Assembly: GCA_963737945.1 (NCBI GenBank)
Contig: CAVTUR010000010.1
Span: 152,705 to 216,704 of the forward strand
Direction of reading: 5' to 3'
Length of the DNA stretch: 64,000 nucleotides
From: Blastocatellia bacterium
GTDB taxonomy: Bacteria > Acidobacteriota > Blastocatellia > UBA7656
A model generated the notes under the pieces. It searched no databases. It was given only the letters and a program-made list of their open reading frames with translations, and was not told the DNA's origin. The position numbers and the translations under genes were made by a program. This document shows, piece after piece, positions 2,025 to 64,000 of this stretch (position 1 is its first letter; each line of letters opens with the position of its first letter).

Positions 2025-2045
2025 ATAATGTAAGCACGCTGAAGC

Positions 2046-7920: not shown

Positions 7921-8985
7921 TCATTTTTTCGTTCCACTCACCGCCTCTTTCCATAGCTCAGGATAATCGGTGAACCCGCCGTCTATCCCAAACCCAACAT
8001 AGCGCTGAATGTCCGCGATGATGCTCGCGCGAACCGTCGAACCATTGGACAGCCTTTCGTCGAGCGGCTTGCGCGCATTGGCGGTGGTCGGGCCGCGAAA
8101 CGTATATGGGTGAATCACCAACCCGGCCTTGTGAAACGTTGCGACATCGGCGTAAGTCTTGAGCAGGGTCTTGCTTGGACCCACTCCGTCCGCGTACCCC
8201 GCAATCTCAGCCGCGAGAGACGGCGTTACCATTGCGGTGTCTTTTTCGCGTCCGGCCGTTTCCATCGGCAAGAGCTGAACGCGGGGGTAGCCGGGCGCAA
8301 GCTCTTTCATTCGCAGCAAGGCTTCCTTGTAGAAAGACTGAATGAAAATCCGACTTCGTTGGGACGGACGCTCGAAGCCGTGCGCTTTGAGGATCTCCGC
8401 GAGTCGTGTGGCTGAATCAAAACCAAGCGCTTTGTAAAACGAGAAGTGTTTCAACTCGATATACAGACCCGCTCGATTGCCGACGAGATTGATCACATCT
8501 TCGATCGTCGGGACGCGCTGGCCGACATAGGATGGGCTGGACGCAAAGGGATTCGCGCGGTTGAACCACGAACCAGCATCAAGCCGTTTGATCTCGGCAA
8601 GCGTGAAATCAACGGTGTACCAGCCTCGCTTTGGCGTCCCGGTTTCGAGCGGATCCCGCAGCGTAGCGCGGTCGGGGAAGACTTCTGCCACGTTGGTTGT
8701 GCGCGCGAGGTCGGGATCGTGAAGACAAATCAGCGCACCGTCCTTTGTGAACTGCAGGTCTTGCTCAACGAAGTCGGCTCCTTGCCTGATCGCCAACTGG
8801 TAACTCGCAAGGGTATGCTCGGGCGCGTAGCCCGACGCTCCACGATGCGCGATGAGCAACGGCTTTTTCAAGGCAGCCGGCGTTTGGTTGGTCATCCCGG
8901 TGGGCGAGGCGTACGTCACGATCAGAATGGTTAACGCCGCGACCGAGGGCGCAACCAGACCATGAAGAGATAGGCTATGGTTCAT
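7921..8985 (-). CDS. Glycerophosphodiester phosphodiesterase (GlpQ/UgpQ family), secreted
   Basis: GDPD motifs LLIAHRGASGYAPEHTLASY and FVEQDLQFTKDGALICLHD. N-terminal signal peptide. ATG at 8985 (a GTG at 8994 is also possible). Confidence 0.8.
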   Translation of the reverse strand: MNHSLSLHGLVAPSVAALTILIVTYASPTGMTNQTPAALKKPLLIAHRGASGYAPEHTLASYQLAIRQGADFVEQDLQFTKDGALICLHDPDLARTTNVAEVFPDRATLRDPLETGTPKRGWYTVDFTLAEIKRLDAGSWFNRANPFASSPSYVGQRVPTIEDVINLVGNRAGLYIELKHFSFYKALGFDSATRLAEILKAHGFERPSQRSRIFIQSFYKEALLRMKELAPGYPRVQLLPMETAGREKDTAMVTPSLAAEIAGYADGVGPSKTLLKTYADVATFHKAGLVIHPYTFRGPTTANARKPLDERLSNGSTVRASIIADIQRYVGFGIDGGFTDYPELWKEAVSGTKK

Positions 8986-9062
8986 TCGCAACACTCCGCC
9001 TGAGCCCGACGTCTCGGCTGGCCTTGCGTCTCAGCGCGGGGACCCGATTTCGCGCCAAGACG

Positions 9063-9136
9063 CTAAAACCATACAAAACGAGGTAAGCCGAAGGGCCCGT
9101 CCACTACGAATAGCCTCCTAACAAAGGACGGCTTCG
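9063..9136 (-). terminator. Putative intrinsic terminator downstream of dps
   Basis: On the minus strand, hairpin gaagccgtcc…ggacgggcccttcggctt followed by a U-rich tract (ttttgtatggtttt). It sits directly after the dps stop. Confidence 0.35.
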
Positions 9137-9163
9137 TCGATCAGGTGGCACAGCTCAAAACAA

Positions 9164-9634
9164 TCAAGCTTCAAGCAAGCTTCTAAGCATCCACGCAGTC
9201 TTCTCGTGCACCTGCATCCGCTGAGTCAACAGATCTGCGGTCGCTTCATCATTCACTCGATCCGCCGAGGGAAACACCGAACGCGCCGTCGACACCACCG
9301 CCTCCTGCCCTTCAACGAGCAGCCTGATCATCTCCTCGGCCTTCGGCACGCCGGGAGTCTCCTTGATCGAGCTCAACCGCGCGAAATCGGCATAGGTCGC
9401 CGGGGCCGGGAAACCAAGAGCTCTTATTCGCTCCGCGACCAGATCCACAGCCAGAGCCAGTTCGTTGTACTGAGTCTCAAACATCAGGTGAAGCGTCTGG
9501 AACATCGGACCTGTGACGTTCCAGTGAAAGTTGTGGGTCTTCAGATACAACGTGTATGTGTCAGCCAGCAGCCTCGACAGTCCCTGTGCGATCTCGGCCC
9601 GGTCACCTTCTTTGATTCCAATATCAATCTTCAT
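9164..9634 (-). CDS. dps: Dps (DNA-binding ferritin-like protein)
   Basis: Ferritin-like Dps sequence [31 protein letters not shown]…; 156 aa; ATG start. Confidence 0.85.
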
Positions 9635-9820
9635 ATCATCTCCATTCTAGTTAAGAAGTCTTCTCTGCATCCCGGCGGCTATTCCTTCGCAGTACCCAGA
9701 AGGTGCCAAACACGCCGCGTAACGCAGGGGAACTCGGAGCCGTCCACACTCTGACTATACAAAACAAACTTGCCATAAGTGAAATACTTTGGTTCGATGG
9801 CCCTACGATTGGAGGAAGTC

Positions 9821-49452: not shown

Positions 49453-50283
49453 ATGATGCCTCCCTCGATTGTATTCGTCGGGATCGCACCTCACCCGCCG
49501 CTTCTCATTCCAGAAGTCGGGGGGAGCCGCATCGAGCAGGTGGCCGGCTCACAGCGCGCGCTGCGAGAGTTCTCGCGGCGCCTGGTCGATAGCCGGCCGG
49601 ATACCATTGTCGTTGTCTCTCCGCACTCGCCGCTCGACCCTGACGTTTTTACGGCGCGTCCGACGAAACACCTCGCTGGCGACTTCCGTGAGTTTCAGGC
49701 GCCGACAGTAAGATTATCCTTCCCCAATGACCTCGAGATGATTGGAGGATTGGCGCACGCGGCCGCGGATGAGGGCGTCGAGTTTCGCGCGCTTGATCGC
49801 GACTATGCGCTGGATCACGGGGCTCTAGTGCCGTTGCACTATCTTCACGAAGCTGGATGGAGCGGACCCATAAACGTCATCGGTTTCACGCTTCAGTCGA
49901 ACGAAAAGCACCTGGCCTTCGGGCGTGCAATAGCCAGGGCCGCGGCCGCGCTCAACCGGCGCGTAGCGCTGGTCGCGAGTGGTGACTTGAGTCACCGTCT
50001 GACCGTCGACGGCCCGTATGAGTACGAGCCAACAGCCCACCTGTTCGACAGCCAGATTGTCGAAGCAGTCACACTCGGCGACCGAAAAGCGTTGATCAAC
50101 ATCGATCCCGATCTAAGGAACCGCGCGGGTGAATGCGGGTACCGATCAATCATCATCGCTCTGGGGACTGCGGGCAACCTTCGAGATCATCAGGTGCTTT
50201 GCTACGAAGGGCCATTCGGAGTTGGGTACCTGGTTGCGGTGCTGGTTGATGAGAAGAAACAGGAATTGACAATTGAAAATTGA
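49453..50283 (+). CDS. AmmeMemoRadiSam system protein B (Memo1/LigB-like extradiol-dioxygenase-fold protein)
   Basis: ggagggcgg RBS. MMPPSIVFVGIAPHPPLLIPEVGG…VVVSPHSP…ALDHGALVPLHYL…ASGDLSHRL (Memo-family His/Asp ligands). Confidence 0.7.
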   Translation: MMPPSIVFVGIAPHPPLLIPEVGGSRIEQVAGSQRALREFSRRLVDSRPDTIVVVSPHSPLDPDVFTARPTKHLAGDFREFQAPTVRLSFPNDLEMIGGLAHAAADEGVEFRALDRDYALDHGALVPLHYLHEAGWSGPINVIGFTLQSNEKHLAFGRAIARAAAALNRRVALVASGDLSHRLTVDGPYEYEPTAHLFDSQIVEAVTLGDRKALINIDPDLRNRAGECGYRSIIIALGTAGNLRDHQVLCYEGPFGVGYLVAVLVDEKKQELTIEN

Positions 50284-50346
50284 AAATTCAGTTAAGAACT
50301 GGGTTTCAATTTGCAATTTTCAATTTTCATTTCTCAATTTTCAATT
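50267..50346. repeat. AT-rich heptamer-array palindrome (gaaaatt units) between the AmmeMemoRadiSam B and A genes
   Basis: gacaattgaaaattgaaaattcag … ttcaatttgcaattttcaattttcatttctcaattttcaattc. Overlaps the B-gene stop. Confidence 0.6.
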
Positions 50347-50390
50347 CCCCTTTTTCGCACCGAGGGGTTCATATACAACACCTCAAAACT

Positions 50391-50930
50391 ATGCGCCTTC
50401 CAGCGAATGACATCTTGCCCCAGGATCTGGCAAAGCTAACGGTCGAGAGCTTTATCCGGGAGCGCAAGATCATCGGCCCGCCCCAAAGTCCTCAAGGTAT
50501 GCTGGCACGGCGGGCGGGCGTGTTCGTGACCCTGCGGGGCGCGGGTGGGAAACTGCGAGGTTGCGTCGGTACGATCGAAGGAGCGTGCCTGAACGTCGCG
50601 GAGGAAATCATCCAAAACGCTATCGGCGCGGCGACTCGCGATCCCAGGTTTCTCCCGTTATCCACCGGCGAACTGCCTGACTTAACTTACAGCGTGGAAG
50701 TGCTGTCGATTCCGGAACCCGCGCGCGGACCTGAGGACCTGAATGCCGCGGTATATGGGGTGATCATCGAAACTATGGATGGACGGCGACGAGGGCTGCT
50801 GCTACCTCGAATTGACGGTATCGAGTCGGTGGCAGCTCAGTGGGGTGCGGTACACTCTAAGGCAGGAATCGAGCCGGGCACTCCCGTTAGGGTTGAACGG
50901 TTCACTGTGGAGCGCTTCGGAAGGGATTAG
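50391..50930 (+). CDS. AMMECR1-domain protein (AmmeMemoRadiSam system protein A)
   Basis: AMMECR1 core AGVFVTLRGAGGKLRGCVGTIEG and LLLPRI…; about 180 aa. Confidence 0.7.
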   Translation: MRLPANDILPQDLAKLTVESFIRERKIIGPPQSPQGMLARRAGVFVTLRGAGGKLRGCVGTIEGACLNVAEEIIQNAIGAATRDPRFLPLSTGELPDLTYSVEVLSIPEPARGPEDLNAAVYGVIIETMDGRRRGLLLPRIDGIESVAAQWGAVHSKAGIEPGTPVRVERFTVERFGRD

Positions 50931-51064
50931 ACGGCAACCCGTGATCCATTTGTCGCCATGGTTCGCCATCCTCGTAAGCTTGACACTGGTTTGTCGCGAC
51001 CGCTATCCTACTCGTCTTTTCCCGAAGCAAATTTGTTAGCAGTGATGAGGAGAGACCCAACGAA

Positions 51065-51331
51065 ATGGCCAATCATAAATCAGCGGAGAAACGAACGCGG
51101 CAGGCTGATCGACGCAACGAAGCGAACCGCCATAATCGGAGCCGGCTCCGCACCGAGATAAAGAAGCTCCGGGCGGCTATCGACGGCGGTAATCTGGAAG
51201 AGGCGAAGGCTCTGCTGGCCGGGACCGTATCGCTGATCGACAAGTCGATTCAGAAGGGCATCCTTCATCAAAACGCCGCTGCCAGATACAAGTCGAGGCT
51301 GACCTCCGGCGTGAATGCAATGTCGGCGTAG
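51065..51331 (+). CDS. rpsT: 30S ribosomal protein S20
   Basis: MANHKSAEKRTRQADRRNEANRHNRSRLRTEIKKL…. Confidence 0.9.
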   Translation: MANHKSAEKRTRQADRRNEANRHNRSRLRTEIKKLRAAIDGGNLEEAKALLAGTVSLIDKSIQKGILHQNAAARYKSRLTSGVNAMSA

Positions 51332-51370
51332 TCCAGCGGTCGCGCTCAGGCGCGAGTTCCACACAACCTA

Positions 51371-51424
51371 CGGCCCACCCCGAATCTTGAGGGTTCAAAC
51401 ACCCTTGAGATTCGAGGTGGGCCG
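51371..51424. terminator. Bidirectional stem-loop between convergent rpsT and holA
   Basis: cggcccaccccgaatcttgagggtt-caaac-acccttgagattcgaggtgggccg; roughly a 20-bp stem allowing G-U pairs. Confidence 0.4.
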
Positions 51425-51454
51425 TTCGAATGTGAACTCATCAGACTCCGAAAT

Positions 51455-52498
51455 CTACGACCGGTCGACGGGTGGCAAGGTCAGCTCCGCGACGAGATAC
51501 TCCATATGCAGCCTCGGCGTACCTTCGGAGTTTTTTATCGCATTGTCAACTTCGGCAATACGGCGAAGCCCGTGCACTATCTCTGCTCGCGACGCGCGGC
51601 GTACCCGGGTTAAGAATGTATCGCTCCATTGCCCTGTAGCTTTTGTTATCGCTTGCGTCGAGGCTCCGCCCTCCATGAGCTGCTTTCCTGTCAGAAGGCG
51701 CCGGTACAGGCTCGCCAGCGATCCGAGTATCGGCAAGGCGTCGCTGTCGTCCAGCAGGTGTTGCATCAGCTTCAAAGCGCGCTTGCGGTCACGGGCATTA
51801 ACGGCATCCCAGAGCTCCCAGCTCGTGTGCTCGCGGGCGCGTGGCACAAGTTCCTGAACGGCGGCGCTGGTGACAACGCCGCCGTCCGCATACGCCGCCA
51901 GCTTTTCAAGCTCGTTCACCAGCCGTGTTAGCCCCGTGCCGACGAGCCTTATCAACAGGCTCAGCGCCGCGGGCTCAATACTGCAACCGCGCTCCTTCAG
52001 CCGCGCCTCAGCCCACCGCTTGGCGCGACCCTCGTCGAGCAGTTCAAACGTCACCACTGCGCAGGTCTTCACGAGCGCCGATGTGAGCTTGCGACGCTTG
52101 TCCGGCGCAACAGCTTGAAATACCATCGTGGTCCCAGGAGCCGGACGCTTCACATACGAAAGGACCAGCTCCTGCTCGTCTTCTCTGACCTTGTCGAAAT
52201 CGCGAACTACGACCACGCGCCGGACGGACATCATCGGCATTTGATTTGCCGCGTCGATGACCATCGCTGCGGTGGTTTTTGAGCCATAGCCGTTGTCGCT
52301 CCCTATCGAGAATACCGACACGTTGAAAACGCGGAGGGCCTCGTCGACGGTCGCGTATAGCAGGCGAAGGGCGCGCTCCTGCAGATACTGCTCCTCGCCG
52401 ACAAACAGATAGAGAGGTTGGATTTGTCCGCCTTTGATCTCGCGGCGAAGATCTTCAAATCCGGGTCCCCTGGATTTTGTTTTTGGCCGTCCGCTCAC
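51455..52498 (-). CDS. holA: DNA polymerase III delta subunit
   Basis: MSGRPKTKSRGPGFEDLRREIKGGQIQPLYLFVGEEQYL…; typical holA length and N-terminus; 4-nt overlap with the upstream gene. Confidence 0.8.
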   Translation of the reverse strand: MSGRPKTKSRGPGFEDLRREIKGGQIQPLYLFVGEEQYLQERALRLLYATVDEALRVFNVSVFSIGSDNGYGSKTTAAMVIDAANQMPMMSVRRVVVVRDFDKVREDEQELVLSYVKRPAPGTTMVFQAVAPDKRRKLTSALVKTCAVVTFELLDEGRAKRWAEARLKERGCSIEPAALSLLIRLVGTGLTRLVNELEKLAAYADGGVVTSAAVQELVPRAREHTSWELWDAVNARDRKRALKLMQHLLDDSDALPILGSLASLYRRLLTGKQLMEGGASTQAITKATGQWSDTFLTRVRRASRAEIVHGLRRIAEVDNAIKNSEGTPRLHMEYLVAELTLPPVDRS

Positions 52499-53013
52499 AG
52501 TCCTTCCATTAGTGTCGAGACAATTGTCTGGGCGAAATCCTTTGCAATGCGGTCGACTGCCGGATTCTCCTCGTTGAAAAATGACTGCGGATCGTCTGAG
52601 AGCTGATACTCGCCCTCAAATGCCATGCGCGGGTTTTGAAAGATTATCTTGTGCGTCTTGAGGTCTCGCACGACGACGCTGACGACAATGCGAACATCCC
52701 AGACTCGCGTGCGGCCGCGATCATCAAGAAGCGATCCGCCCGCGTGAAATTGGCGTATGTCGCCGTCGAGTACGGCATCGGCGTTTTCCTGATTGGTGAC
52801 CACGCGAAGCGCACGAGCACGCTTAAGGATCTCGTCGATGACCGCCTGAGTGAATCGCTGCTCGACTCTATACTTGAGACTGGTGTTTTGGAATACGGGC
52901 ACAGCGATGGTCTTAATGTTCGCAGGCAGACTCTTACCCTTGCCGGCCTGCTTGTAGCCGCATACCCCAACGAACATCGACAGCGCGACTGCGAACAGTA
53001 AGGGCTTGAACAT
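52495..53013 (-). CDS. LptE-like LPS-assembly lipoprotein (RlpB family), tentative
   Basis: Signal/lipobox MFKPLLFAVALSMFVGVCG. About 172-aa lipoprotein immediately upstream of and overlapping holA, as in the conserved leuS-lptE-holA arrangement. Confidence 0.5.
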   Translation of the reverse strand: MFKPLLFAVALSMFVGVCGYKQAGKGKSLPANIKTIAVPVFQNTSLKYRVEQRFTQAVIDEILKRARALRVVTNQENADAVLDGDIRQFHAGGSLLDDRGRTRVWDVRIVVSVVVRDLKTHKIIFQNPRMAFEGEYQLSDDPQSFFNEENPAVDRIAKDFAQTIVSTLMEGL

Positions 53014-53158
53014 CTTGTCGTGGATATTAGCGTTCGAACCGCGGATCGGACAAGCAGGCAGGCGAAACCGCCGGAGTTTGAGACCTGGAGTGCGCGCGGT
53101 TAGTGCCGGTGGCGTACGTCCTAAATGCGTCGCGAAGCAACCGAAGAGGCGTCCAAAG

Positions 53159-53871
53159 CTAGACGAACTCAGCCACAACCTGCCGCCCGCAATCGTCGTT
53201 TGCAATATATACAACGAAAGCGTTGACGACATACAACTCGTCGTCGTAACTGTGCGTCCTCAGATGTTTTGGCATCGGCAATTCGAGTCTCAATTCCGTG
53301 GCCGGCTCAACCTGGCGCGACAGTCGGAACCTTACACCCAGCGGGCTCAAGTCCAAAGTCTCGGTAAGCTCTTGCCAATTGCGATCAAAGCTCACTCGCA
53401 GGGGAAGGTTCATCCTCACGCGCCCTACCCTCGCATTTCTTCTCTCACGCCGTGAGCCTCGGCCAGGGGTGTTCCGGCCGCTGGCGCGAGTTCGTTCAGC
53501 GAGGGTTGGCGCGAGTCAACTTTGGGACCGCGGACCGGGTCACCGTTCTGGCTTCTGAGGGTGTCGTCATAGACCTCCCGTCGACCGCGACGAGACAGGA
53601 CAGTGAATGCTTCTTCGATCCGAAGGAATGCGGAGCTCAACTTCCAGTGCATTACACTATCTGATTCTGTGATCTTGCGCCTCTTGGTCGGATGAAAACA
53701 TTCGACGGCCAGGCAGTAGGCCGCCTGTATCTCCTCTCTGGAAGCGTCAGGGCTTACGCCAAGCACCGTGTAGTGATCAGGCTCGTCTGTGATCAGATCG
53801 GCCATTAGTCCTACTTCGTCGGTGGTTAACGACCGATCCTCGATCAGGCCGACAACGCCGTCTTCTCTCAT
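53159..53871 (-). CDS. Degenerate J-domain (HPD to HPT) + PilZ-domain protein; one apparent frameshift near 53420
   Basis: J-like domain DHYTVLGVSPDASREEIQAAYCLAVECFHPTKRRK…FTVLSRRGRREVYDD. PilZ motifs REEMR (RxxxR) and DLSPLGVRF (DxSxxG). Its ATG overlaps the GNAT stop (TGATG). Confidence 0.65.
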
Positions 53872-54753
53872 CAGTGTACTTTTTGTTTTAGGAATATCGT
53901 GTCGTAGTGGCTGACAAACGTGTAGCCAGCCCTCTTGTAGAAGCGTTGCGCGGCTTGAAACCTTTCATTCACCAGCAGACACACCGAGGAGGTTCTCAAC
54001 AGCAGGTCTCTGGTCAACTGTGCCATACAACGCAATCCGATGCCTTTGCCTCGCTCTGCCGGATCGACCCACACGCCTTCCAGGTATGCTACCTCAGGTG
54101 TGTCGGTTAGCACTTCTGCCTTGAACATCAGCCGTCCCTCTTCCACCCACACCCAGGTCTGTCCTTGCTCTATTCGTCTCGCACATCGCTTCCGGAATTC
54201 TTCCGGATTTTCCTTCAGCGGGTCAATACCACTCTCGTCAAATGCGGTTTGAGCGTGCGCGGGAACAACCAGGTCGAGATCATCGGGAGTCGCCCGCCGC
54301 AAGCCCGCACGCCGATTCTCGTCACTTCGTCCGGCCATTGCTGCTCGAATAGCAGCTCCCGGCAGTACAGCCGCGCCTCCTGTCCTCCATCCCCATAATA
54401 ATGCCAGAACGTCTCGACCTCCTCTTGTTCTCCCAGCAGCATATGGGCGTTCGGACACTCCTGTGCGAGCCGCGCAAATAGCCTCGATAGCCGCGTCGCT
54501 GCGTGTCTCAAACAGGATGTAGCGGCCAATGAGGGCCACGCCTTGAAGCTGCCCGGAGTGCATTGCGGCAACCGTAGAAGGCGCCCTGATTGTGCGGGCT
54601 GACAAGCCCGTTGGAACGGATGAACCCGGTCATGCCGAAGGTGTGGCTCGGCCGCTCGCCCAAAAACTCCATCACTTCGGTTTCCTGCTCCGCCCTGAGT
54701 TCTTCCACGATCAGCGGCTCGCTCTCGTTTGCAGGCAGGCCCTGCGCATCCAT
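53871..54753 (-). pseudogene. GNAT-family N-acetyltransferase (two-domain, about 290 aa), 3 or more frameshifts
   Basis: Acetyl-CoA site …VWVDPAERGKGIGLRCMAQL…RFYKRAGY in ORF 53871-54605. N-terminal pieces sit in ORFs 54508-54753 and 54215-54571. Confidence 0.55.
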
Positions 54754-54887
54754 TCTGCTTCGCGTTGATACTTAGTCAGAGGATACATGTCGTTTTCCTT
54801 TTAGCCCTTTGAGTCCTTCCTGGATCAATTGCCTTACGTCGGTGCGTTACCGCGAGATGCTTAACAGCGTGCAGCATAATCCCCCGC

Positions 54888-56831
54888 CTAGTTGAGCGGG
54901 TCAGGATCGGGCTCCGGCAACATGGCGCTGGTCAAGTCACCGCTCATTGCGGATGAGGCTAGAATAGATTGGGCGGTCGCCCCCAACGAAGCAGAGAAGT
55001 AGCTATCGGACAACAGCACTCCATCCGAGAGGAGTACCCCATCGGATAGCAGTACCCCGCTTGATAGCACGGTGCCCAGCGTGAGGAGGGTGCCGCTCGA
55101 CAGCAAAGTGCCGTCCGAGAGGAGCACGCCATCCGACAGGAGGACACCGCTCGAAAGGAGAGTGCCATCGGATAAGAGAACGCCGCCGGCCAGAAGGGTG
55201 CCGTCTGAAAGCAACACTCCGGTTCCGTAGACGCCCTGATATTTCGTGATGAGCGAGGAGCCATAGACGAAGTTCCATCTTTGGACAAATCCGCCGCCCC
55301 AGGAAAACGTGTTGCCGGCGATCGTCGTTGTTTGTGTAGGCGCCGCTCCGGTGAGCAAAGAATCGCCCACCACGCGTCCCGCCAGGTCGGTACGTATCAG
55401 TCCCGCCAGCCTTACGCCGCCTTCCACATTCAGTTCGCCTGCTCCCTGTTCGTAGTTGCTGGCGCCGGCCAGAGGCCGCGACGTGTATTGCAGGATGCCC
55501 TTAACAAGGTTCGGGGTCAGACTCGGATTTCTCTGTATCAGTAGGGCCGCCGCACCTGCAACGGCCGGCGTGGCCATCGATGTCCCGCTCATGTACATCA
55601 TTTTGTGGACGGCGGACCAGCTTACGTACGCATTAAGGCTGGGGTTGTCAGTCACAAGCTTGTTGCCCGGTGATAGACACTCAATTATCTTGTTGCCCGG
55701 AGCGACCAGATCGGGCTTGATCAGATTGTCGTATTGCCTTACCCCCAGAGAATCGGTGGTATATCCGCGCGTTGGACCTCGAGAGCTAAAGCTCGCAACA
55801 GTGTCATCGACGCGGCTGTCCGTGCCATAGGTGTTGGCTGCCCCAACGGTGATCGCGGATGGTTCTATGCCCGGGGAATGGATTGCGCCGAACACCTTGT
55901 TGCCTGCGAGGTCTTTGCCGGTATTGCCGGCTGCCACGCATACGACTATCCCCGCGTTGAATGCTCGCCGCACTGCCTGGCAAAGCGGATCGTTCACATA
56001 CGAATCAACCGCCGTAGTGCCAAAGCTCATGTTAAGCACTCGAATGTTGTAAGCAGCCTTGTTGGCTATACACCAGTCAATCCCCGCGATCGCGTTAGAC
56101 ATCGAGCCGGCGCCCTGAGAATTCAGCACTCTTACATTGATGATCTTTGCCGCCGGTGCCACTCCGGTATACTTGCCGTTGGAAACGTGATCGTTTCCCG
56201 CCGCAATCGACGCCACGTGAGTACCGTGTCCGTAGGGATCGTCGGTCCTACCCTCACCCGTGAAGTCAACGCTCGCAACCACTCGGCCCGTATTAAATGA
56301 GTGATGCGCGGAGTAGACGCCCGAATCGAGTATTGCGATTCCAATGCCTGAGCCATTTATCGTCCCGGTTGAACTCGTGCCGTAGGCCCGCGCCAAAGAA
56401 GCTCCAGTGGTGACTTCCAGGTGACCTGTCACTTGTGTGTCTCGATCGAGAGAGATGTACTTGACGCCATCGTCGCTGGCGAGAGCACGGATCGCACCCG
56501 CGGACAGCTCCACTGCGGCAGTCCTCCCGCCGTCCAGGCTTCTGGTTATGATGCCTCCCAGTTTGCCGATCCTTGCCATCTGACTGCTTGCGGACTTTGC
56601 ATTCGCCAGGCTGTCTGTCTGGATGATTACGCGGATCGGTTTATCACTCGCGTATCCGACGGCATCCTCCAGATCCGACGCCACTTTTCTCATAGGAACA
56701 ATCGGTTGCGCTTTCGATTGAGCCATCGCGTTGCTTTCAAAGAGCCCATCCGTTGGCGCGCCGCTCAACGCGAAAGAGGCGGCCACTACGACTGCCGTTA
56801 GCACCTTGAAAACGTTTTTGGAGATTTTCAT
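54888..56831 (-). CDS. Secreted subtilisin-like serine protease (peptidase S8) with a C-terminal hexapeptide-repeat domain
   Basis: Signal peptide. Catalytic triad motifs AILDSGV (Asp), HGTHVASIAAG (His), GTSMATPAVAGAAALL (Ser). C-terminal tail has about 10 tandem [ST][DS]G[VT]LL repeats. Confidence 0.85.
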   Translation of the reverse strand: MKISKNVFKVLTAVVVAASFALSGAPTDGLFESNAMAQSKAQPIVPMRKVASDLEDAVGYASDKPIRVIIQTDSLANAKSASSQMARIGKLGGIITRSLDGGRTAAVELSAGAIRALASDDGVKYISLDRDTQVTGHLEVTTGASLARAYGTSSTGTINGSGIGIAILDSGVYSAHHSFNTGRVVASVDFTGEGRTDDPYGHGTHVASIAAGNDHVSNGKYTGVAPAAKIINVRVLNSQGAGSMSNAIAGIDWCIANKAAYNIRVLNMSFGTTAVDSYVNDPLCQAVRRAFNAGIVVCVAAGNTGKDLAGNKVFGAIHSPGIEPSAITVGAANTYGTDSRVDDTVASFSSRGPTRGYTTDSLGVRQYDNLIKPDLVAPGNKIIECLSPGNKLVTDNPSLNAYVSWSAVHKMMYMSGTSMATPAVAGAAALLIQRNPSLTPNLVKGILQYTSRPLAGASNYEQGAGELNVEGGVRLAGLIRTDLAGRVVGDSLLTGAAPTQTTTIAGNTFSWGGGFVQRWNFVYGSSLITKYQGVYGTGVLLSDGTLLAGGVLLSDGTLLSSGVLLSDGVLLSDGTLLSSGTLLTLGTVLSSGVLLSDGVLLSDGVLLSDSYFSASLGATAQSILASSAMSGDLTSAMLPEPDPDPLN

Positions 56832-57489
56832 GGTTTTAGCTCCCGACTGCGGTTAATAGCTAATGAGCACTGAGTTCAACTTCTTCAGCTTTCGACTGCT
56901 CTGTGTCTCTACAACCTTGAAGAGAAAATGATTCCGGTCACAAATAACACTCCCGAGTCGAACCCTCGACAGACGTTCCAATAGTCAACAGCCGTGCCGG
57001 AAGGTCAAACACCCGAGCCCCGACGCTCCGTGGAGGCATATGAATGGTCAGGGGGTAGCTCATATCCAGAGGACTTCGGAGTTTGCATTTACTTGGCAAA
57101 TCAAGACTTATGCAGGCTTGGGTCTTTGCCTTTGGCGGTCCCTTCACTTGCCGCCCGAAAGGGACCCGGACCAAGGAACACGACCGGTCACGTATAGCCC
57201 CCCGGCTTCGCGTCCGGTCAGCTTAATGGAAGGCGTTCGGTCTTATTGAATGAAGGCTCTTTTGAGGAATCAACGATGGGGGCCGCTGATCCAATAATTA
57301 CTCTTTGCTTCGAATCGACGACTGATTACTATTTGGAGGAGTCATCCCAGCCCTCGCTCTGCAATTCAGTTCAGGACTTCAACGGCAGGCAGAATCCGGC
57401 TGAAGACCTCGACTGCCTCTGCCCCTCCAGCTTGGCTTCGGAGCGAAAAGTCGAACTTGATTGTTGGGACCGGGCGGCCGGGTGAGAGA

Positions 57490-58626
57490 ATGTCTGCTGA
57501 TCAAGAATACAGCGAAGATCAGGTAAGCGCTTATTACCTGGAGGTTGAGTGCTTGTTGGAGCGCGTGGAGATTTCGTCCACACACTATCAGGTCCTGGGG
57601 CTGGATAGTCTAGCTACTACCGGAGAGATAAGACTTGAATATCTGCGGGCGGCTGCATTGCTGAATCCTTCACAGTTCGGACTCAATCTGTCAATACCGG
57701 ACGCCTCATTGCTCAGGGTTGATCAGGCGTTCGAAAGAATTTCCCAGGCATTCGCGGTCCTCGTGAACTCCAATAGAAGAAACCAATACGATGAATTGCT
57801 AAGTCAAGATTGGACCGCGGCGCGGCCGGTGATCAAATCCGGATCGGCTTTATCAGACATTCTGGCCGACCCTCCGCCGGTTACGGCTCCGGCGGAACAC
57901 AGCGCACTCAACACCAACGACACCCAGACTCAACAGCGAGTCTTCACAAAACCAGACGGCGGCGCGGCGGAAACCGATCGGCGCAAGTGTGAGCGATTCA
58001 GACTCTCGATACCTGTCCTCGTGACCGGTTACGAGCAAGGAAAGGGCAAGTGGAAGGAGTTCACGCAGACAATCGATATCAGCAAAATGGGAGTCCTGCT
58101 CAAGATTGCGACGCGAGTGCGCGTTGGAAGAGTGCTCTATCTTACGATGCCCATGCCTTCGGAGTTACGGACTCACTCCCACGACCAACCGCGATACGGC
58201 GTGTACGCTCTGGTGCGGCGAATCGAGCCTACCAGGAATGGACGCCGGGGCGTCGGGCTCGAGTTGTTGGGTGAGGACCCTCCGGCGGGTTACTTAGAGA
58301 AGCCCTCGGACATATTTGATCCAAAGAGGTGGGACGCCGTTCAACGCAGGCGGTTCCCTCGCGAGGAAAGAGTCGAGGAGATCACTATCGACTACCTGTC
58401 TCAAACAATGGAACTACTGGGACAGGAGGAGACGTTTTCGGAAAACGTAAGTTCGACCGGTATTAGAGTAATGATCGAAGCCGCCCCAGACGACTTCGAG
58501 TTTGTCAGAGTGCGCTGTTCCAAGCGTGGCTTTGATAGTCTGGCAGCCGTTTCCAACCAGTACGTCGGAGATGATGGAGTCGGTCGATTGTGTTTGCGCC
58601 TTCTCGATAGGAAGTGGCCCGTCTAG
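57490..58626 (+). CDS. Degenerate J-domain (HPD to NPS) + tandem PilZ-domain protein
   Basis: J-like THYQVLGLDSLATTGEIRLEYLRAAALLNPSQ…LVNSNRRNQYDELL. PilZ-1 motifs RRKCERFR and DISKMGVLL. PilZ-2 motifs RRRFPREER and NVSSTGIRV. Shares an MPxP..LRTHS.D motif with the 53159-53871 paralog. Confidence 0.7.
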   Translation: MSADQEYSEDQVSAYYLEVECLLERVEISSTHYQVLGLDSLATTGEIRLEYLRAAALLNPSQFGLNLSIPDASLLRVDQAFERISQAFAVLVNSNRRNQYDELLSQDWTAARPVIKSGSALSDILADPPPVTAPAEHSALNTNDTQTQQRVFTKPDGGAAETDRRKCERFRLSIPVLVTGYEQGKGKWKEFTQTIDISKMGVLLKIATRVRVGRVLYLTMPMPSELRTHSHDQPRYGVYALVRRIEPTRNGRRGVGLELLGEDPPAGYLEKPSDIFDPKRWDAVQRRRFPREERVEEITIDYLSQTMELLGQEETFSENVSSTGIRVMIEAAPDDFEFVRVRCSKRGFDSLAAVSNQYVGDDGVGRLCLRLLDRKWPV

Positions 58627-58965
58627 GCACATCGGTTGGCCCTGCGTCCTCACTTCAGGAGTGAATTCTGCCACGGTCTGCTTGACCAGCTTACATCAAG
58701 CTGACCGAAATGCTTCCTTCAAGTATGTAATGTCGATCCGGATTCTTTTATGCGTGCCGCGTTTTTCCCCGGAAAAATAACCTTCTCTCAGGAGATCGCA
58801 TCCACTTGCTAACTCATTACTTAAGCTCTGGTTATCTCCAGTTTCCGGTTGCGCTCCACTTACTTGAACGAGGGAAACAGACCGCGGATGCCGATAGATA
58901 AACGATATGTTCTCTTTTGGCACGCTCATTGACTGTTGTTTGCCGAATACCAGGATAGCTTCCAA

Positions 58966-61485
58966 ATGAGCAACGCATTGCCGGTGGACACCGAGAGAAT
59001 CGCCGCGCCCTACATGAAAATTGTGGCAGCGACCGGTGCTGCCATAAGCCTATTCGCTGTTTATCACTTACCGATCACAAGGATCGGTCTGCCTTTTCTG
59101 CTCTTGGCGGCAGTGACACTAGGTGTCGGATCCAGGATTCGCGTTAGCTTTTTTCGTTTCGACTCCTGCATTTCGATCTCAGATATCTTCATTTTTCTTA
59201 CGCTCCTGTTGTTCGATGGAGAGGCGGCTATTGTTGTCGCGGCGCTGGAGGGTTTTTTCTCGTCGCTGCGCATTACCAAGAAACCGCTCACGATGGCGTT
59301 CAACTCCGGCGGCATGGCGTGGTCAACTTTTCTAAACGTGTTGGTGCTTCGCTTCTGCTTCGGATCGATAGTTGGTCCACATCAAGTTTTTTCTTCCAGA
59401 CTCATTGTAATGACCTGCACAATGGCCTTTGTTCAATACGCCACCAATTCGGGGATTGTCGCTGTCGCGGCGGCCCTAAGAGCAAATCAGCCCATCTGGG
59501 TCACATACAAAGAGAACTTCGTTTGGACCTCACTCACCTATTTTGCCGGAGCTTCAGCGGCCACAATCATCGTCAGGCTGATAAGCGCCGTCGGTTTCTA
59601 TGCCTTCATAGCCACGTTGCCGATCGTCGGAATCCTCTACCTCACATATGTAACTTATCTCAAGAATGTCGCGGCTTCGGCGTCACAGGCTGAACAAGCC
59701 GAACGCCATCTTGCTGAGATGCAGGAAAGCGAAGGGCGATTCCGAAGCGCCTTTGACCTGGCCCCAATTGGAATGGGACTGGTTTCACCTGAGGGACGCT
59801 GGCTGCAGGTCAATCAATCGTTGTGTCAGATCGTCGGGTACCCGGAAGAGGAACTCCTGCGGATGAAGTACCAGACGATCACCCATCCGGAAGATCTTAC
59901 TGGTTTCGCGTACAACATAAGCGAGGTCGTTGACGGCAAGACTCTCACTCACCAGATGGAGAAGCGATACCGCCACAAACTGGGCCACAATGTCTGGGTC
60001 TTAGTCGGGGTCTCGCTCATTCGCGACTCAGAAAGTAACTCGTCGCATCTTATCTTTCAGATTCAGGACATCACCGATCGCAAGAACGCAGAGGAACAAC
60101 TCGTGCACGAGGCTTTCCACGATGCCCTGACCGGATTGCCTAACCGAGCATGGTTTATGGAACAGCTTGGTAGGTCTCTGGACCAGGTCAAGCAGGACAA
60201 GGATCGTCTGTTTGCCGTGCTGTTCCTCGACCTTGATCGCTTCAAGACCATCAACGACAGCATAGGCCACATGGTTGGAGACCAGTTGTTGATCGGGATC
60301 GCCGAGAGACTTCGGCATTGCCTGCGCCCTGGAGACAGGATAGCCAGACTCGGCGGCGACGAGTTTACGATACTACTCAACGGTATCAGGGACGCCAGTT
60401 GGGCCATCGACGTCGCCGAGAAGATCCAGAGACACGTCTCGCAGCCGTTCAACCTTGGCGGTTATGAGGCCTGCACTTCCGCGAGCATCGGCATAGCATT
60501 TTCCAACGCCGACTATGATCGACCGGAGGACTTCCTGCGCGACGCGGACACGGCTATGTATCAGGCCAAGTTCCTCGGCAAGGCCCGTCACGTAGTCTTC
60601 GACAAAGGCATGCACGTCGATGCGATGAATCTCCTGCAGTTGGAGACTGACCTGCGCAGGGCGATCGATCGCCAGGAATTCCTGATCGGATACCAGCCTA
60701 TTGTCTCACTGGAAACCGGTAGACTCAGCGGATTCGAAGCCCTTGTCCGCTGGCAGCACCCGGATCGCGGATTGATCCCCCCAAATGATTTCATTGCAGT
60801 CGCTGAAGAGACAGGTTTCATAGTTCCAATCGGTCAATGGGTACTACTTGAAGCGTGCAGCCAAATGCGACTCTGGCAGAAGAGGTTCTCATCGGCCGAA
60901 CCCTTGTATGTCAGCGTCAACCTTTCCGGCAAACAGTTCACCCATTCGAATCTGGTTCATCAGATAAGCCGGGTACTCAATGTTACCGGGCTCGAATCGC
61001 ATTCGCTGAAGCTGGAAATTACCGAGAGAATAGTGATGGAGAATATCGAAGGAGCGACTGGGATACTCGAGCAGTTGCGTGCCCTCGGGGTCGAACTCAG
61101 CATCGATGATTTTGGGACAGGGTACTCATCACTTAGCTATCTGCACCGCCTGCCCATCGACACCTTGAAAATAGATCGCTCCTTCATCAGCTGCATGGGC
61201 GACAACAACGAGAACAGAGAGATTGTACGAACGATAATATTGCTGGCCCAAAACCTGAAAATGGGCGTCGTCGCCGAGGGGATCGAAACCGAGGAACAGC
61301 TTGCGCAACTACGCGAGCTTAACTGTCAGGACGGCCAGGGTTACTTATTCTCCAGACCGCTCAGCGCAGAAGCAGCAGGCAGTTTCATTGAACAGATCTC
61401 TCAACTCCAAATACCCACCACCTCGGCCATCGAGTTGCGCAGCGAAGATGCTTTTGCGCCTATCGCAAGTCCCTACTCGATGTAG
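58966..61485 (+). CDS. Membrane sensor diguanylate cyclase/phosphodiesterase (N-terminal ~8-TM domain, PAS, GGDEF, EAL)
   Basis: PAS segment FDLAPIGMGLVSPEGRWLQVNQSLCQIVGY. I-site RPGD plus active-site RLGGDEF. EAL motifs FEALVRW, DDFGTGYSSLSYL, KIDRSF. An in-frame TTG at 58936 is an alternative start. Confidence 0.85.
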   Translation: MSNALPVDTERIAAPYMKIVAATGAAISLFAVYHLPITRIGLPFLLLAAVTLGVGSRIRVSFFRFDSCISISDIFIFLTLLLFDGEAAIVVAALEGFFSSLRITKKPLTMAFNSGGMAWSTFLNVLVLRFCFGSIVGPHQVFSSRLIVMTCTMAFVQYATNSGIVAVAAALRANQPIWVTYKENFVWTSLTYFAGASAATIIVRLISAVGFYAFIATLPIVGILYLTYVTYLKNVAASASQAEQAERHLAEMQESEGRFRSAFDLAPIGMGLVSPEGRWLQVNQSLCQIVGYPEEELLRMKYQTITHPEDLTGFAYNISEVVDGKTLTHQMEKRYRHKLGHNVWVLVGVSLIRDSESNSSHLIFQIQDITDRKNAEEQLVHEAFHDALTGLPNRAWFMEQLGRSLDQVKQDKDRLFAVLFLDLDRFKTINDSIGHMVGDQLLIGIAERLRHCLRPGDRIARLGGDEFTILLNGIRDASWAIDVAEKIQRHVSQPFNLGGYEACTSASIGIAFSNADYDRPEDFLRDADTAMYQAKFLGKARHVVFDKGMHVDAMNLLQLETDLRRAIDRQEFLIGYQPIVSLETGRLSGFEALVRWQHPDRGLIPPNDFIAVAEETGFIVPIGQWVLLEACSQMRLWQKRFSSAEPLYVSVNLSGKQFTHSNLVHQISRVLNVTGLESHSLKLEITERIVMENIEGATGILEQLRALGVELSIDDFGTGYSSLSYLHRLPIDTLKIDRSFISCMGDNNENREIVRTIILLAQNLKMGVVAEGIETEEQLAQLRELNCQDGQGYLFSRPLSAEAAGSFIEQISQLQIPTTSAIELRSEDAFAPIASPYSM

Positions 61486-61572
61486 TTGCCACTCCTGACT
61501 TGTGGCGCGCCGCGAAAGCCGGGAAACGAGCGCGTGAAGCCACCTCACCCGCAACGTGAAGGTTGCGCTTCG

Positions 61573-64000
61573 TCACTTTATTACTACATTGATCAGTTTT
61601 CTTGGGATGACGATGATCCTTGCGACATCGCGGCCCTCGATTGCAGCTTTCACTTTGTCATCCGCAAGCGCGGCCTCGCGCAGCCAGTCATCGCTCGCGT
61701 CTGCGCTTGCGAAAACGCGGCCCCGCAGCTTGCCGTTGACCTGGACCGCAACTTCGATCTCTTCGTCACGAGCGAGTTCGGCGCTGAATTCCGGCCATCG
61801 CGCCTGCGCCAGGCTCTCGGAATGGCCAAAACTCTCCCACAGCTCCTCGCTGATGTGAGGACCAAACGGCGCCAGCATCCGAATCAATGCGTTGAATGCT
61901 TCACGCGCTACCTGGGCATCTGAGTCGCTCGCATCGCCAATCTTTTCGACCGCCTGGTCGAACGCGTAGATCTCGTTGGTCAGTTCCATCAACGACGAGA
62001 TGCAGGTGTTCAAGTGAAGCCGTTCCTCGAAGTTTTCGGTTATCGATCGTACTATCTGATGCACGCGGCGACGGAGCCTTCGCTGATGGTCTTGAAGATC
62101 ACCCTGGGTAATCAATCCCTCGCTCGCTCCAACAATCCTGCCCTGCCACTTGTGAGCTATTCGCCAGACTCGCTGCAGGTATCGTGAAGTGCCTTCGAAT
62201 CCGGTATCCGACCACTCCTTATCCTTCTCGGGTGGACCGGCAAAGAGCACGAACAAGCGCAGCGCATCCGCGCCGTGAATGTTGATCATCTCGACAGGAT
62301 CGACGGCGTTCTTTTTGGACTTCGACATCTTTTCGACGCGGCCGGTGACTACTTCCCTTCCGCAGATCGCGCAAGTCCTCTCGCCGGTCACTTGCTCGGG
62401 AAACAACCACTCGTGCTCGGGGCAGAAGTATGTTTCCTTATTGATCATCCCCTGGGTGAGCAGCCGCATAACCGGCTCATCCAAGGTCACAAGCCCCAGA
62501 TCGCGCATCACCTTCGTCCAGTAACGTGTATAGATCAGGTGCATCACTGCGTGCTCGATGCCGCCGATGTATTGATCGACCGGCAGCCAGTAGCCAACCT
62601 TCTCGGGATCGAATGGCTGACGGTCGTTGTGCGGATCGCAGTAGCGAAAGTAATACCAGTTCGAGTCAACAAAGGTGTCCATCGTGTCGGTGTCGCGCTT
62701 CGCCTCGCCGCCACATTTCGGGCAACTCACGTCGACGTAGTCAGGCACGTGGTCGAGCGGCGAGCCGCCGGTGACGTTCAAGTTCACTCCCTTTGGCAAC
62801 ACAACCGGCAACTGATCGTCGGGCACCGGCACGATGCCGCACTTCTCGCAGTGAATCATCGGAACCGGTGTGCCCCAGTAGCGCTGCCGGGAGATGCCCC
62901 AGTCGCGCAGCTTATAAGTGATCGCCGAACGCCCAAACTGGTGAGTCTCAGCGTAGGCGGTCATCAGCCTGTTTGCTTCTTCTGAAGACAAGCCGCTCCA
63001 CTCCCCCGTGTTCACCGTGGTACTCCAGGATTCATCCGGGAATTCCATTTCTTCCGCTGGAATCTCGGCACCGTCTGCAGCCAGCTTGATCTGGCGAAAC
63101 GGCAGCTGGTACTTGCGCGAGAACTCGAAGTCTCGGCTATCACCGGCCGGCACCGACATGAGCGCCCCGGTTCCGTATTCGGCCAGCACAAAGTTCGCGA
63201 TCCATATCGGCAGGCGTTCCTCGTTGAACGGGTTTATCGCATACCCGCCGGTGAAGATGCCGTGCTTTTCCAGTTCGTCAACTCGCGAGCTTCGTTGTTC
63301 CTGCTTAAGCGTCTCGGCGAATGCCAATACCTCTTCTCGCTGTGGCTTGCCCTCGAGGATCTTCGAGACAAGCGGATGCCCGGGCGCCAGTATGATCGCG
63401 TTCGCGCCGAATATCGTGTCGATGCGAGTAGTAAACACCGACACCGAATTGTCGGAGTCCGCAATCTGGAACCGAACCTCTGCGCCGCGACTCCTGCCAA
63501 TCCAGTTGCGCTGCATGGAGATCACGCGCTCGGGCCAGCCGCCTTCCAGTTGATCGAGACCATCGAGCAACTGATCGGCGTAATCCGTGATTCGCGCAAA
63601 CCACTGCATCAACTGTTTCTGAGTGACCGGAGTATCGCATCGCCAGCAGACGCCGCCCGAGGCCTGTTCGTTGGACAGCGAGATATTCTCCTTCGGACAC
63701 CAGTTGACCGGAGCGAGCTTGCGATAGAGCATCCCCCGCTCCCACATTCGAATAAAGAACCACTGGTTCCACTTGTAGTACTCGGGGTCGCAGGTGGCGA
63801 CCTCGCGCGACCAGTCGTAGCTGATCCCCATTCGCAGAAGTTGATCTTTCATCGTCGCGATCGCGTTCCGCGTAAACTCCTCCGGATCAGTTCCGTCTTT
63901 GATGGCGGCCGTCTCAGCAGGCTGGCCAAAGGCATCCCAGCCGAAGGGGTGAAGCACGTTGAAGCCGCGCATCCGCTTGAACCACGCCAGAGCATCGCCG
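61573..64000 (-). CDS. leuS: Leucyl-tRNA synthetase, 5' partial (frame continues past the window end)
   Basis: …RMRGFNVLHPFGWDAFGQPAE…; editing (CP1) domain, KMSKS motif (VEKMSKSKKN) and C-terminal anticodon-binding region. No stop between 63972 and 64000 in frame. Confidence 0.9.
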   Translation of the reverse strand, partial: GDALAWFKRMRGFNVLHPFGWDAFGQPAETAAIKDGTDPEEFTRNAIATMKDQLLRMGISYDWSREVATCDPEYYKWNQWFFIRMWERGMLYRKLAPVNWCPKENISLSNEQASGGVCWRCDTPVTQKQLMQWFARITDYADQLLDGLDQLEGGWPERVISMQRNWIGRSRGAEVRFQIADSDNSVSVFTTRIDTIFGANAIILAPGHPLVSKILEGKPQREEVLAFAETLKQEQRSSRVDELEKHGIFTGGYAINPFNEERLPIWIANFVLAEYGTGALMSVPAGDSRDFEFSRKYQLPFRQIKLAADGAEIPAEEMEFPDESWSTTVNTGEWSGLSSEEANRLMTAYAETHQFGRSAITYKLRDWGISRQRYWGTPVPMIHCEKCGIVPVPDDQLPVVLPKGVNLNVTGGSPLDHVPDYVDVSCPKCGGEAKRDTDTMDTFVDSNWYYFRYCDPHNDRQPFDPEKVGYWLPVDQYIGGIEHAVMHLIYTRYWTKVMRDLGLVTLDEPVMRLLTQGMINKETYFCPEHEWLFPEQVTGERTCAICGREVVTGRVEKMSKSKKNAVDPVEMINIHGADALRLFVLFAGPPEKDKEWSDTGFEGTSRYLQRVWRIAHKWQGRIVGASEGLITQGDLQDHQRRLRRRVHQIVRSITENFEERLHLNTCISSLMELTNEIYAFDQAVEKIGDASDSDAQVAREAFNALIRMLAPFGPHISEELWESFGHSESLAQARWPEFSAELARDEEIEVAVQVNGKLRGRVFASADASDDWLREAALADDKVKAAIEGRDVARIIVIPRKLINVVIK

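Follow-up and report, generated by a model that had tools for sequence, protein, structure and literature searches.

What can a bacterial protein do that joins a J-like domain, in which the HPD tripeptide is replaced by NPS, to two PilZ domains? The question is raised by a gene in a 64,000-nucleotide stretch of DNA from a Blastocatellia bacterium (GenBank assembly GCA_963737945.1, contig CAVTUR010000010.1, positions 152,705 to 216,704 of the forward strand), hereafter the window. The gene, which we call the target, lies at 57457..58626 on the + strand between a divergently oriented S8 protease gene and a downstream gene for a membrane GGDEF-EAL enzyme. A first-pass annotation, made from the letters alone, described it as the second of two J-like/PilZ paralogs that would read the cyclic di-GMP (c-di-GMP) made or degraded by this enzyme. 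We propose, with moderate confidence and from sequence comparison and structure prediction, that the target protein is a soluble cytoplasmic c-di-GMP receptor whose output would be protein–protein contact through a pseudo-J domain, and that it does not act as a canonical co-chaperone.

The target protein joins a J-like domain to two PilZ domains

The list of open reading frames (ORFs) gives the target gene as 389 codons from TTG 57457, and the start chosen in the first-pass annotation, ATG 57490, yields a product of 378 aa with the same stop at 58626. In L006, the closest relative with flanking DNA (70% identity), an ATG stands at the position of TTG 57457 and no Met is present where the window carries ATG 57490; the longer ORF is therefore likelier, and TTG 57457 is probably the true start by homology. 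Residues are nevertheless numbered here from ATG 57490, and all coordinates within the target gene refer to the + strand. That a real gene lies here is borne out by the ORF, by its homologues and by Pfam matches to both DnaJ and PilZ above their cut-offs. A database search returns 50 homologues of 37–74% identity, mostly 350–430 aa long and nearly all with both domains, and those that are named belong to Blastocatellia or Acidobacteriota metagenome-assembled genomes (MAGs). An NCBIfam scan of the target gives no specific model and only sub-threshold DnaJ matches. Three parts make up the protein: a J domain with NPS for HPD, a linker of some 55 residues that is predicted to be disordered, and two PilZ barrels of six strands each. 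The linker (aa 111–163; 57820..57978) is predicted to be disordered, with a predicted local distance difference test (pLDDT) score of 27–49 in an AlphaFold2 model computed with a 27-sequence alignment, and it is unconserved and varies in length in the family alignment A1.

PilZ domain 1 (aa 164–272; 57979..58305) is recognized by Pfam PilZ over aa 163–263 with 39.3 bits against a cut-off of 22.5, and six strands are predicted within aa 175–261. Its two c-di-GMP-binding motifs are RRKCER (57979–57996) and DISKMG (58075–58092). Specifically, among 100 unique homologues, R165 and R169 are kept in 97, S198 in 95 and G201 in 98, so that the RxxxR motif is present in 97, the [DN]xSxxG motif in 94 and both together in 93. 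PilZ domain 2 (aa 273–378; 58306..58623) contains RRRFPR (58345–58362; R286 R287 xxx R291), which sits in the inter-barrel linker, and NVSSTG (58444–58461; N319-V-S321-xx-G324). Here RxxxR is retained in 91, [D/N]hSxxG in 88 and both together in 86 of the same 100 homologues. When PilZ1 is compared with the C-terminal region by hhalign, 95 columns align (E 4e-5) and the two motifs of one fall opposite those of the other; the model also places a second barrel there. Because of this match, the second barrel and the presence of both motifs, the C-terminal third is assigned as PilZ. Both domains are predicted to form six-stranded barrels, at aa 175–261 and 297–371, with pLDDT about 90. The two motif pairs named in the first-pass annotation are thus both present and conserved in the family.

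The best Foldseek matches of the model are two-barrel PilZ proteins, namely MotI/DgrA (5vx6), YcgR (5y6f), MrkH (5ejl), PlzD (3kyg) and PlzA (7mie), each over about 220 columns. The loss of motifs from the N-terminal barrel that marks the YcgR type is not seen, the target's N-terminal barrel keeping both (93/100 sequences); the target is of the PilZ–PilZ tandem type, not of the YcgR type, despite the fold match. Additionally, PilZ1 contains a family signature, MPMPSELRTHSHD (aa 220–232; 58147..58185), which falls between strands 215–220 and 236–245 of the model and in which P221, P223, L226 and R227 are invariant in A1. The short J-PilZ family, to which the other J-like/PilZ gene of the window ('paralog 1') belongs, carries the signature as LPMPKHLRTHSYD, with the equivalent P202, R206 and T207 invariant in alignment A2. 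The motif MPxPxxLRTHSxD is common to both paralogs, as had been noticed, but it sits inside PilZ1 and not after the PilZ core. The PilZ–PilZ module is basic, with a family median isoelectric point (pI) of 9.9 and a value of 10.3 for PilZ1.

The J-like domain (aa 9–110; 57514..57819) matches Pfam DnaJ over aa 31–101 with 34.8 bits against a cut-off of 27.8, and the family profile also finds solved J domains (E 2e-9); in that alignment 'LNPS' of the family stands opposite 'xHPD', and a short insertion comes after it. In the AlphaFold2 model, helices are formed by residues 9–28, 32–35, 44–58, 71–92 and 94–110 at pLDDT 87–96. The first of these is an extra, family-specific helix ahead of the four J helices and is strongly conserved: S13 does not vary among the 8 sequences of alignment A3, and at least 90% of A1 keeps Y15 and L23. 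Y33, L36, F81, A87, L91, R97 and Y100 of the J core are invariant in A1, and the target has both the helices I–IV and the core residues of the J fold. A search with the J-like domain alone for other architectures returned two fragments only. An N-terminus unrelated to J domains and PilZ domains devoid of binding residues, either of which would have undone the first-pass assignment, were both looked for and neither was found.

The tripeptide NPS occupies aa 59–61 (57664..57672) at the position of HPD in solved J domains. Among 100 unique family sequences, 87 cover this position and read HPS (26), NPS (24) or other tripeptides (37), and none reads HPD; Asp stands at the third position in a single sequence, a 'TPD', and the His is usually lost as well. 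By hand alignment to what we take to be the E. coli DnaJ sequence, the window protein carries the changes K23L, K26L, H33N, D35S and R36Q. H33 and D35 of DnaJ are indispensable for stimulation of DnaK, and the substitutions H33Q and D35N abolish stimulation of its ATPase. Because the equivalents of these two residues are lost, the domain is J-like and not that of a canonical co-chaperone. The window protein lacks both HPD and the basic face of helix II, the latter loss being variable in the family, and its J-like domain is acidic (K+R 7 vs D+E 17, pI 4.25). Judged from sequence, these two losses speak against a domain that works as a canonical Hsp70 co-chaperone.

A proposed mode of action

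We propose that c-di-GMP would bind one or both PilZ sites, as their motifs and fold suggest, and we regard it as quite likely that the target is a c-di-GMP receptor. In the target, as in YcgR, MotI and MrkH, the second RRxxxR belongs to the linker that joins the barrels, and ligand binding would therefore be expected to lock the barrels in position with respect to one another, as it does in those proteins. The signal would then pass to the J-like domain, tethered by the disordered linker of about 55 residues, and this domain would bind a partner under control of the ligand without stimulating the ATPase of DnaK. Candidate partners are an Hsp70, a true J-protein (as Pam16 binds Pam18) or some other protein; that the partner belongs to the Hsp70 system is a possibility we consider doubtful. 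The idea raised in the first-pass annotation, that such readers act on chaperone or proteolytic targets, is a guess. Among local candidates, the neighbouring enzyme would most plausibly supply or remove this c-di-GMP, and the chance that the target is functionally tied to this enzyme or to the island around it appears to us about even.

A small family with a portable PilZ–PilZ cassette

When 1.84 billion cluster representatives are searched with a profile of the family, 192 proteins match at E<=1e-30, and the number rises to 743 at E<=1e-10. In a scan of one genome per species, 57 loci of the target's family, hereafter the long family, are found. Most of their labels read Blastocatellia or Acidobacteriota, a single one reads Candidatus Onstottus arcticum, and several others read 'uncultured Clostridia bacterium'. 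The loci under this last title (L029, L044, L051, L055, L056 and L066) are probably taxonomically mislabelled. The scan used sub-alignment A3, alignment A1 being too divergent for search patterns; the same genomes scanned with the single target protein as query gave no relatives. Several genomes contain two to four long-family copies. The long family is small and Blastocatellia-specific, and belongs to uncultured soil Acidobacteria.

The PilZ–PilZ cassette is a portable unit. It occurs most often together with the J-like domain, but also alone, in proteins of about 230–260 aa, and at the C-terminus of GAF-PAS-GGDEF-EAL-PilZ-PilZ fusions of 1053–1104 aa from six Blastocatellia lineages (L053 5409–8669, L057 5880–9065 and L060 5841–9077, and further L061 323–3499, L063 5652–8813 and L064 5385–8699). 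In these fusions the enzyme part is 57–62% identical to the enzyme of the window and the PilZ–PilZ part 41–49% identical to the target. The fusion genes of L060, L063 and L064 have an S8 gene, 40% identical to that of the window, divergently upstream. L060 and L064 also contain a gene for a membrane HD-GYP-GAF-GGDEF protein whose N-terminal domain is distantly like that of the window enzyme.

J-PilZ-PilZ proteins with an additional C-terminal receiver domain (494–577 aa) are encoded in L005 (6292–7953), L008 (3568–5301), L047–L049, L054 and L055, and a stand-alone receiver gene lies directly downstream of the J-PilZ-PilZ gene in L002 (9251–9646). The combination of phosphorylation and c-di-GMP inputs in some family members suggests itself.

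The downstream enzyme and the leuS-lptE island

The gene downstream of the target (58966..61485, + strand) encodes a membrane PAS-GGDEF-EAL enzyme that matches Pfam EAL with 254 bits, GGDEF with 158 bits and PAS, the N-terminus consisting of hydrophobic segments followed by the PAS domain. Its ATG at 58966 is 340 nt after the target stop. The I-site RPGD at aa 454 is followed, after five residues, by GGDEF at 463 (aa 454–467), and the EAL domain contains EALVR (591), EITE (684), DDFGTG (714) and KIDRSF (735). The enzyme therefore has the active-site, I-site and EAL catalytic residues of a bifunctional GGDEF-EAL protein, in agreement with the earlier description of a same-strand PAS-GGDEF-EAL gene 340 bp downstream with all three motifs intact.

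Within the 340-nt gap lies a sigma54-type promoter-like element, TGGCACGCTCATTGA (58918–58932, + strand), which ends 34 nt upstream of the enzyme ATG and is the only TGGCAC-N5-TTG in the window. The sequence TGGCAC-N5-TTGA(C/G)TA precedes 15 of the 17 orthologous enzyme genes examined (L071–L113), amid otherwise variable sequence, and it is also present in L006, about 160 nt from the gene start; its background rate is 0.024 per kb. The spacing of the element varies: it is 34 nt in the window and, measured to the approximate start of the gene, 117–156 nt in the orthologues. The element looks like an RpoN (−24/−12) promoter whose −12 position has GA where GC is usual. Because this conserved element lies in the gap, the enzyme is probably transcribed independently, from its own promoter under an enhancer-binding protein, and not co-transcribed with the target. 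Neither an intrinsic terminator nor a sigma70 promoter was found between target and enzyme, and an Rfam scan of 50000–64000 detected no c-di-GMP riboswitch or other relevant RNA element. A target–enzyme operon was considered and rejected, on the grounds of the conserved internal promoter-like element and of an adjacency that is not conserved across the long family.

The two genes lie in a conserved island between leuS and lptE-holA (51455–63972 in the window; loci L071–L113 in comparison), which comprises genes for the S8 protease, a GNAT acetyltransferase, the short J-PilZ protein and the transmembrane PAS-GGDEF-EAL enzyme in at least four gene orders, the enzyme orthologues being 66–73% identical to that of the window over their full length. 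Read in the orientation of leuS, the window order is leuS, the enzyme and the long J-PilZ-PilZ gene (both inverted), S8, GNAT, short J-PilZ, lptE and holA. Because the short J-PilZ gene served to retrieve the compared loci, frequencies are conditional on its presence. Where a non-redundant locus is informative (25 loci), the short J-PilZ gene is followed by the gene for this enzyme 12 times and by lptE another 12 times. The long J-PilZ-PilZ gene stands beside the enzyme only in the window and, probably, in L006, which keeps S8, the long gene, the promoter-like block and, at the contig end, a start reading 'MRKALP' ('MSNALP' in the window). In other loci a short J-PilZ gene lies directly upstream of the enzyme, a slot that the long protein holds in the window lineage. 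In L107, the S8–GNAT pair is duplicated on both flanks of the enzyme (383–3358 and 7026–10000).

The first-pass annotation had proposed a compact c-di-GMP module of the enzyme plus two readers of the same layout. Part of this stands: the fusions and the conserved island link J-PilZ and PilZ–PilZ proteins to this enzyme subfamily. The gene that usually precedes the enzyme is, however, the short J-PilZ gene, the long form being near a GGDEF gene in only about 4/59 lineages, and the idea of two readers of the same layout was mistaken.

The same evidence bears on an alternative that we consider unlikely, in which the PilZ–PilZ module is a product-sensing regulatory subunit of the PAS-GGDEF-EAL enzyme, acting in trans here and in cis in the fusions, and switches its cyclase/phosphodiesterase output, with the J-like domain serving only as a docking or dimerization handle. 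This would account for fusions in six lineages to an enzyme part so similar to the window enzyme (57–62% identity), and for the many island loci in which a J-PilZ-type gene immediately precedes that of the orthologous enzyme. Such an enzyme, however, is near only about four of the 59 long-family lineages and is missing downstream of the short J-PilZ in 12 of the 25 island loci; moreover, it already has an I-site for product feedback, and target and enzyme genes have separate predicted promoters.

Remaining alternatives and points against the proposed receptor

A more elaborate reading, which we hold to be rather improbable, is that c-di-GMP releases or re-orients the J-like domain, which would then bind DnaK or a true J-protein without ATP hydrolysis and, as a decoy or adaptor, would retune the Hsp70 cycle or hand over clients, the leuS-lptE island forming a self-contained circuit from c-di-GMP to protein quality control or exoprotease production. 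If this were true, the clients could be, for example, the secreted S8 precursor or the target of the GNAT enzyme, and the circuit, in Blastocatellia, would consist of S8, GNAT, J-PilZ and a sigma54-driven diguanylate cyclase/phosphodiesterase (DGC/PDE).

Quite improbable is a true c-di-GMP-regulated Hsp70 co-chaperone, a counterpart of the PilZ–DnaK proteins CsdK1 and CsdK2, in which the J domain still stimulates DnaK, perhaps a specialized DnaK paralogue, while the PilZ barrels recruit clients or control access. In its favour are a well-kept J fold with invariant core residues, the fusion of PilZ domains to domains of the Hsp70 system in M. xanthus (PMC10313047; PMC8316039), and the presence in L005, L008 and L047 of clpB and a gene for a CbpA-like DnaJ at about 5 kb from the family genes. 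Set against this, HPD is found in 0/87 sequences and its Asp is gone except in the one 'TPD', helix II has lost most of its basic residues in a domain that is acidic overall, and no DnaK gene is a conserved neighbour across the 59 long-family lineages.

Least probable is a MrkH/PlzA-type c-di-GMP-dependent nucleic-acid binder controlling the S8 gene, the enzyme gene or both, since the traits that would favour it, namely MrkH and PlzA among the best fold matches (PlzA binds DNA and RNA with c-di-GMP; PMC9915621), the basic PilZ–PilZ module (median pI 9.9), the conserved blocks that window and L006 share in the 625-nt divergent region and the S8 orthologue beside three fusion genes, are met by a basic charge that any Arg-rich c-di-GMP site is expected to have, by the absence of a recognizable DNA-binding motif, by an S8 neighbour in only 6/59 long-family lineages (one of them with a different S8) and by a conserved J-like domain that it leaves unexplained.

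Several points also weigh against the reading that we favour, that of a c-di-GMP receptor acting through its pseudo-J domain. The family is known only from uncultured MAGs, every one of the 57 loci included. Across the family the J-like domain has a median pI of 6.4, and strong acidity is thus not universal. The C-terminal third submitted alone to Pfam matches PilZ with 12.9 bits (E 0.15), which is below threshold, and the AlphaFold2 model has a predicted template modelling score (pTM) of 0.45, so that the arrangement of the domains relative to each other is not confident. Canonical PilZ domains have a single long C-terminal alpha-helix after the barrel, and PilZ–PilZ proteins are reported to keep it (Galperin & Chou, bioRxiv 10.1101/814665); in the model of the target, no helix of at least 4 residues follows either barrel, except for a 4-residue turn at aa 283–286. 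In a neighbour-joining tree of the PilZ–PilZ region, which lacks resolution in its deep branches, the window clade and the clade of the fusions do not come out as sisters.

The genomic contexts of the long family point in the same direction. A separate GGDEF gene occurs within 8 kb in about 4/59 lineages, which is roughly chance level by an estimate that assumes tens of GGDEF genes per genome. The contexts fall into several unrelated synteny groups: an exopolysaccharide (EPS) cluster with DUF2911; genes for a receiver domain, an RRM protein and a DEAD-box helicase; a J-PilZ-PilZ-REC paralogue; and a GAF-sigma54 activator. The largest group (about 17–20 lineages; for example L015, L019, L021, L022, L025 and L029) is always flanked on one side by an oxidoreductase-like gene of 867 aa and on the other by a SnoaL-like gene together with an amidohydrolase gene of about 445 aa, these neighbours being named from sequence only, and its context may be simple lineage synteny. 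Coupling of the target to the neighbouring enzyme may thus be lineage-specific or fortuitous.

The short J-PilZ gene, the GNAT gene and the S8 protease

The first paralog of the earlier annotation, a short J-like/PilZ gene at 53159..53871 on the − strand, turns out to differ from the target in layout: it reads HPT at the HPD position, encodes one PilZ domain and is frameshifted in the assembly, where it is split into two frames. DnaJ is matched with 44.8 bits, and the single PilZ is encoded in a different frame, where an 86-aa ORF scores 21.9 bits in Pfam; an extended PilZ peptide of this gene has no match in Pfam. The gene is broken by one missing base beside a GGG run near 53431, at the codon of the first Arg of RxxxR. 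Adding one base there produces an ORF of 237 aa that reads ...EEMR(R/G)VGRVRMNLPLRV..., like the family's ...EMRRVERVPLNLPLRV. The short family comprises at least 105 clusters, whose intact members are mostly 230–250 aa long and 48–70% identical, with a subset near 300 aa that has a longer linker. It is larger and tighter than the long family (mean column identity 57%), and its H60 and P61 are invariant, the third position being L, S, T or V and never D.

Paralog 1 is coupled to a GNAT gene (53871..54753, − strand; Pfam Acetyltransf_1), which is likewise in two frames in the assembly (54753..54508 and 54605..53871); in L107, an intact 308-aa homologue spans both pieces. The start of paralog 1 overlaps the GNAT stop codon in the window (53871), and likewise in L072 (5001). 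A GNAT gene is the upstream neighbour of the short J-PilZ gene in half of the non-redundant loci (17/34), usually overlapping it or within 54 nt, an arrangement that suggests translational coupling of an acetyltransferase with a putative c-di-GMP reader. That paralog 1 represents two genes or a programmed frameshift was rejected: at least 105 homologue clusters are single ORFs, one added base mends the ORF, and the adjacent GNAT gene is also broken. The frame breaks point to indel errors or very recent decay; with two frameshifts within 1.4 kb, assembly indel errors are therefore suggested rather than two pseudogenes.

The gene divergent from the target (54888..56831, − strand) encodes a secreted S8 subtilase that matches Pfam Peptidase_S8 with 170 bits and has an intact catalytic triad, D169/H202/S418. 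Its C-terminus consists of about twelve GVLLSD-type hexapeptide repeats (aa 538–609; 55005–55220, − strand); repeats of this type are also present in the S8 homologue of L107. Orthologues are 82% identical in L006, 49–82% in the island loci and 40% beside the three fusion genes. The intergenic region between S8 and target (56832–57456, 625 nt) contains several blocks nearly identical to L006, which may be regulatory sites or a small RNA; examples are CGCTGATCCAATAATTACTCTTTG near 57284–57310 and TCCGGTCA..TTAATGGAAG near 57213–57240.

Relation to known systems

Few output mechanisms of PilZ receptors are understood, and these receptors are defined by the partners attached to them. Automatic annotations already call family members 'DnaJ-like protein/PilZ domain-containing protein'. 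In the literature searched, a conserved family that joins an HPD-less J-like domain to two motif-intact PilZ barrels is not described, and neither are a short sister family coupled to a GNAT gene nor a leuS-lptE island with a sigma54-driven DGC/PDE. The island, with S8, GNAT, J-PilZ and PAS-GGDEF-EAL genes, represents a concrete circuit candidate in Acidobacteriota, a phylum whose signalling is almost unstudied. A PilZ pair that drives a J domain without HPD would, if confirmed, be a new kind of c-di-GMP output.

Fusions of PilZ to REC, GGDEF, EAL and other domains, and PilZ–PilZ tandems, are known (Galperin & Chou, bioRxiv 10.1101/814665). With the tandem proteins Bll4394 and Blr5568 of B. 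diazoefficiens and SMc00999 of S. meliloti, the target shares two consecutive six-stranded barrels and an inter-barrel RxxxR; it differs in the added N-terminal J-like domain and in barrels that, in the model, lack the C-terminal helix. YcgR, MotI/DgrA, MrkH and PlzA, the best structural matches, likewise have two barrels with an RxxxR in the linker. Unlike the YcgR type with its PilZN domain, the target keeps the binding motifs in both barrels, and it differs from the two-barrel PilZ proteins in the family-specific LPxPxxLR signature inside barrel 1.

HPD-less J-like proteins are represented by Pam16/Tim16 (Magmas) of mitochondria and ARC6 of plants, which are binding partners or regulators and not ATPase activators. 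In these proteins, as in the target, the J fold is kept and HPD is lost; however, they are eukaryotic or organellar and have no nucleotide-messenger input, and their kinship to the target is confined to the J fold.

The closest bacterial parallels come from M. xanthus, in which the PilZ–DnaK proteins CsdK1 and CsdK2 have been characterized (Seidel et al. 2023, PMC10313047) and PilZ proteins with a DnaK or DnaJ domain have been noted (Kuzmich et al. 2021, PMC8316039). All 24 deletions of PilZ genes were tested in the latter study, with defects in motility or development only for plpA, pixA, pixB and pkn1, and mutants of the DnaJ–PilZ proteins are not described separately there. PixB of M. xanthus, a PilZ-PilZ-GNAT protein (PMC8316039), resembles the island in joining PilZ functionally to GNAT, as the short J-PilZ gene of the window overlaps the GNAT stop codon; in the island, however, the link to GNAT concerns the short paralogue and separate polypeptides, and PixB has no J-like domain. 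CsdK1, CsdK2 and the DnaJ–PilZ proteins of M. xanthus share with the target the fusion of PilZ to a component of the Hsp70 system, the DnaJ–PilZ proteins being compared here by description only. CsdK1 and CsdK2 are full Hsp70s, whereas the target has an HPD-less J domain with two motif-intact PilZ domains and a family confined to Blastocatellia. If the proposed receptor acts as we suggest, it would provide a bacterial example of a regulated 'pseudo-J' that complements the PilZ–DnaK proteins of Myxococcus.

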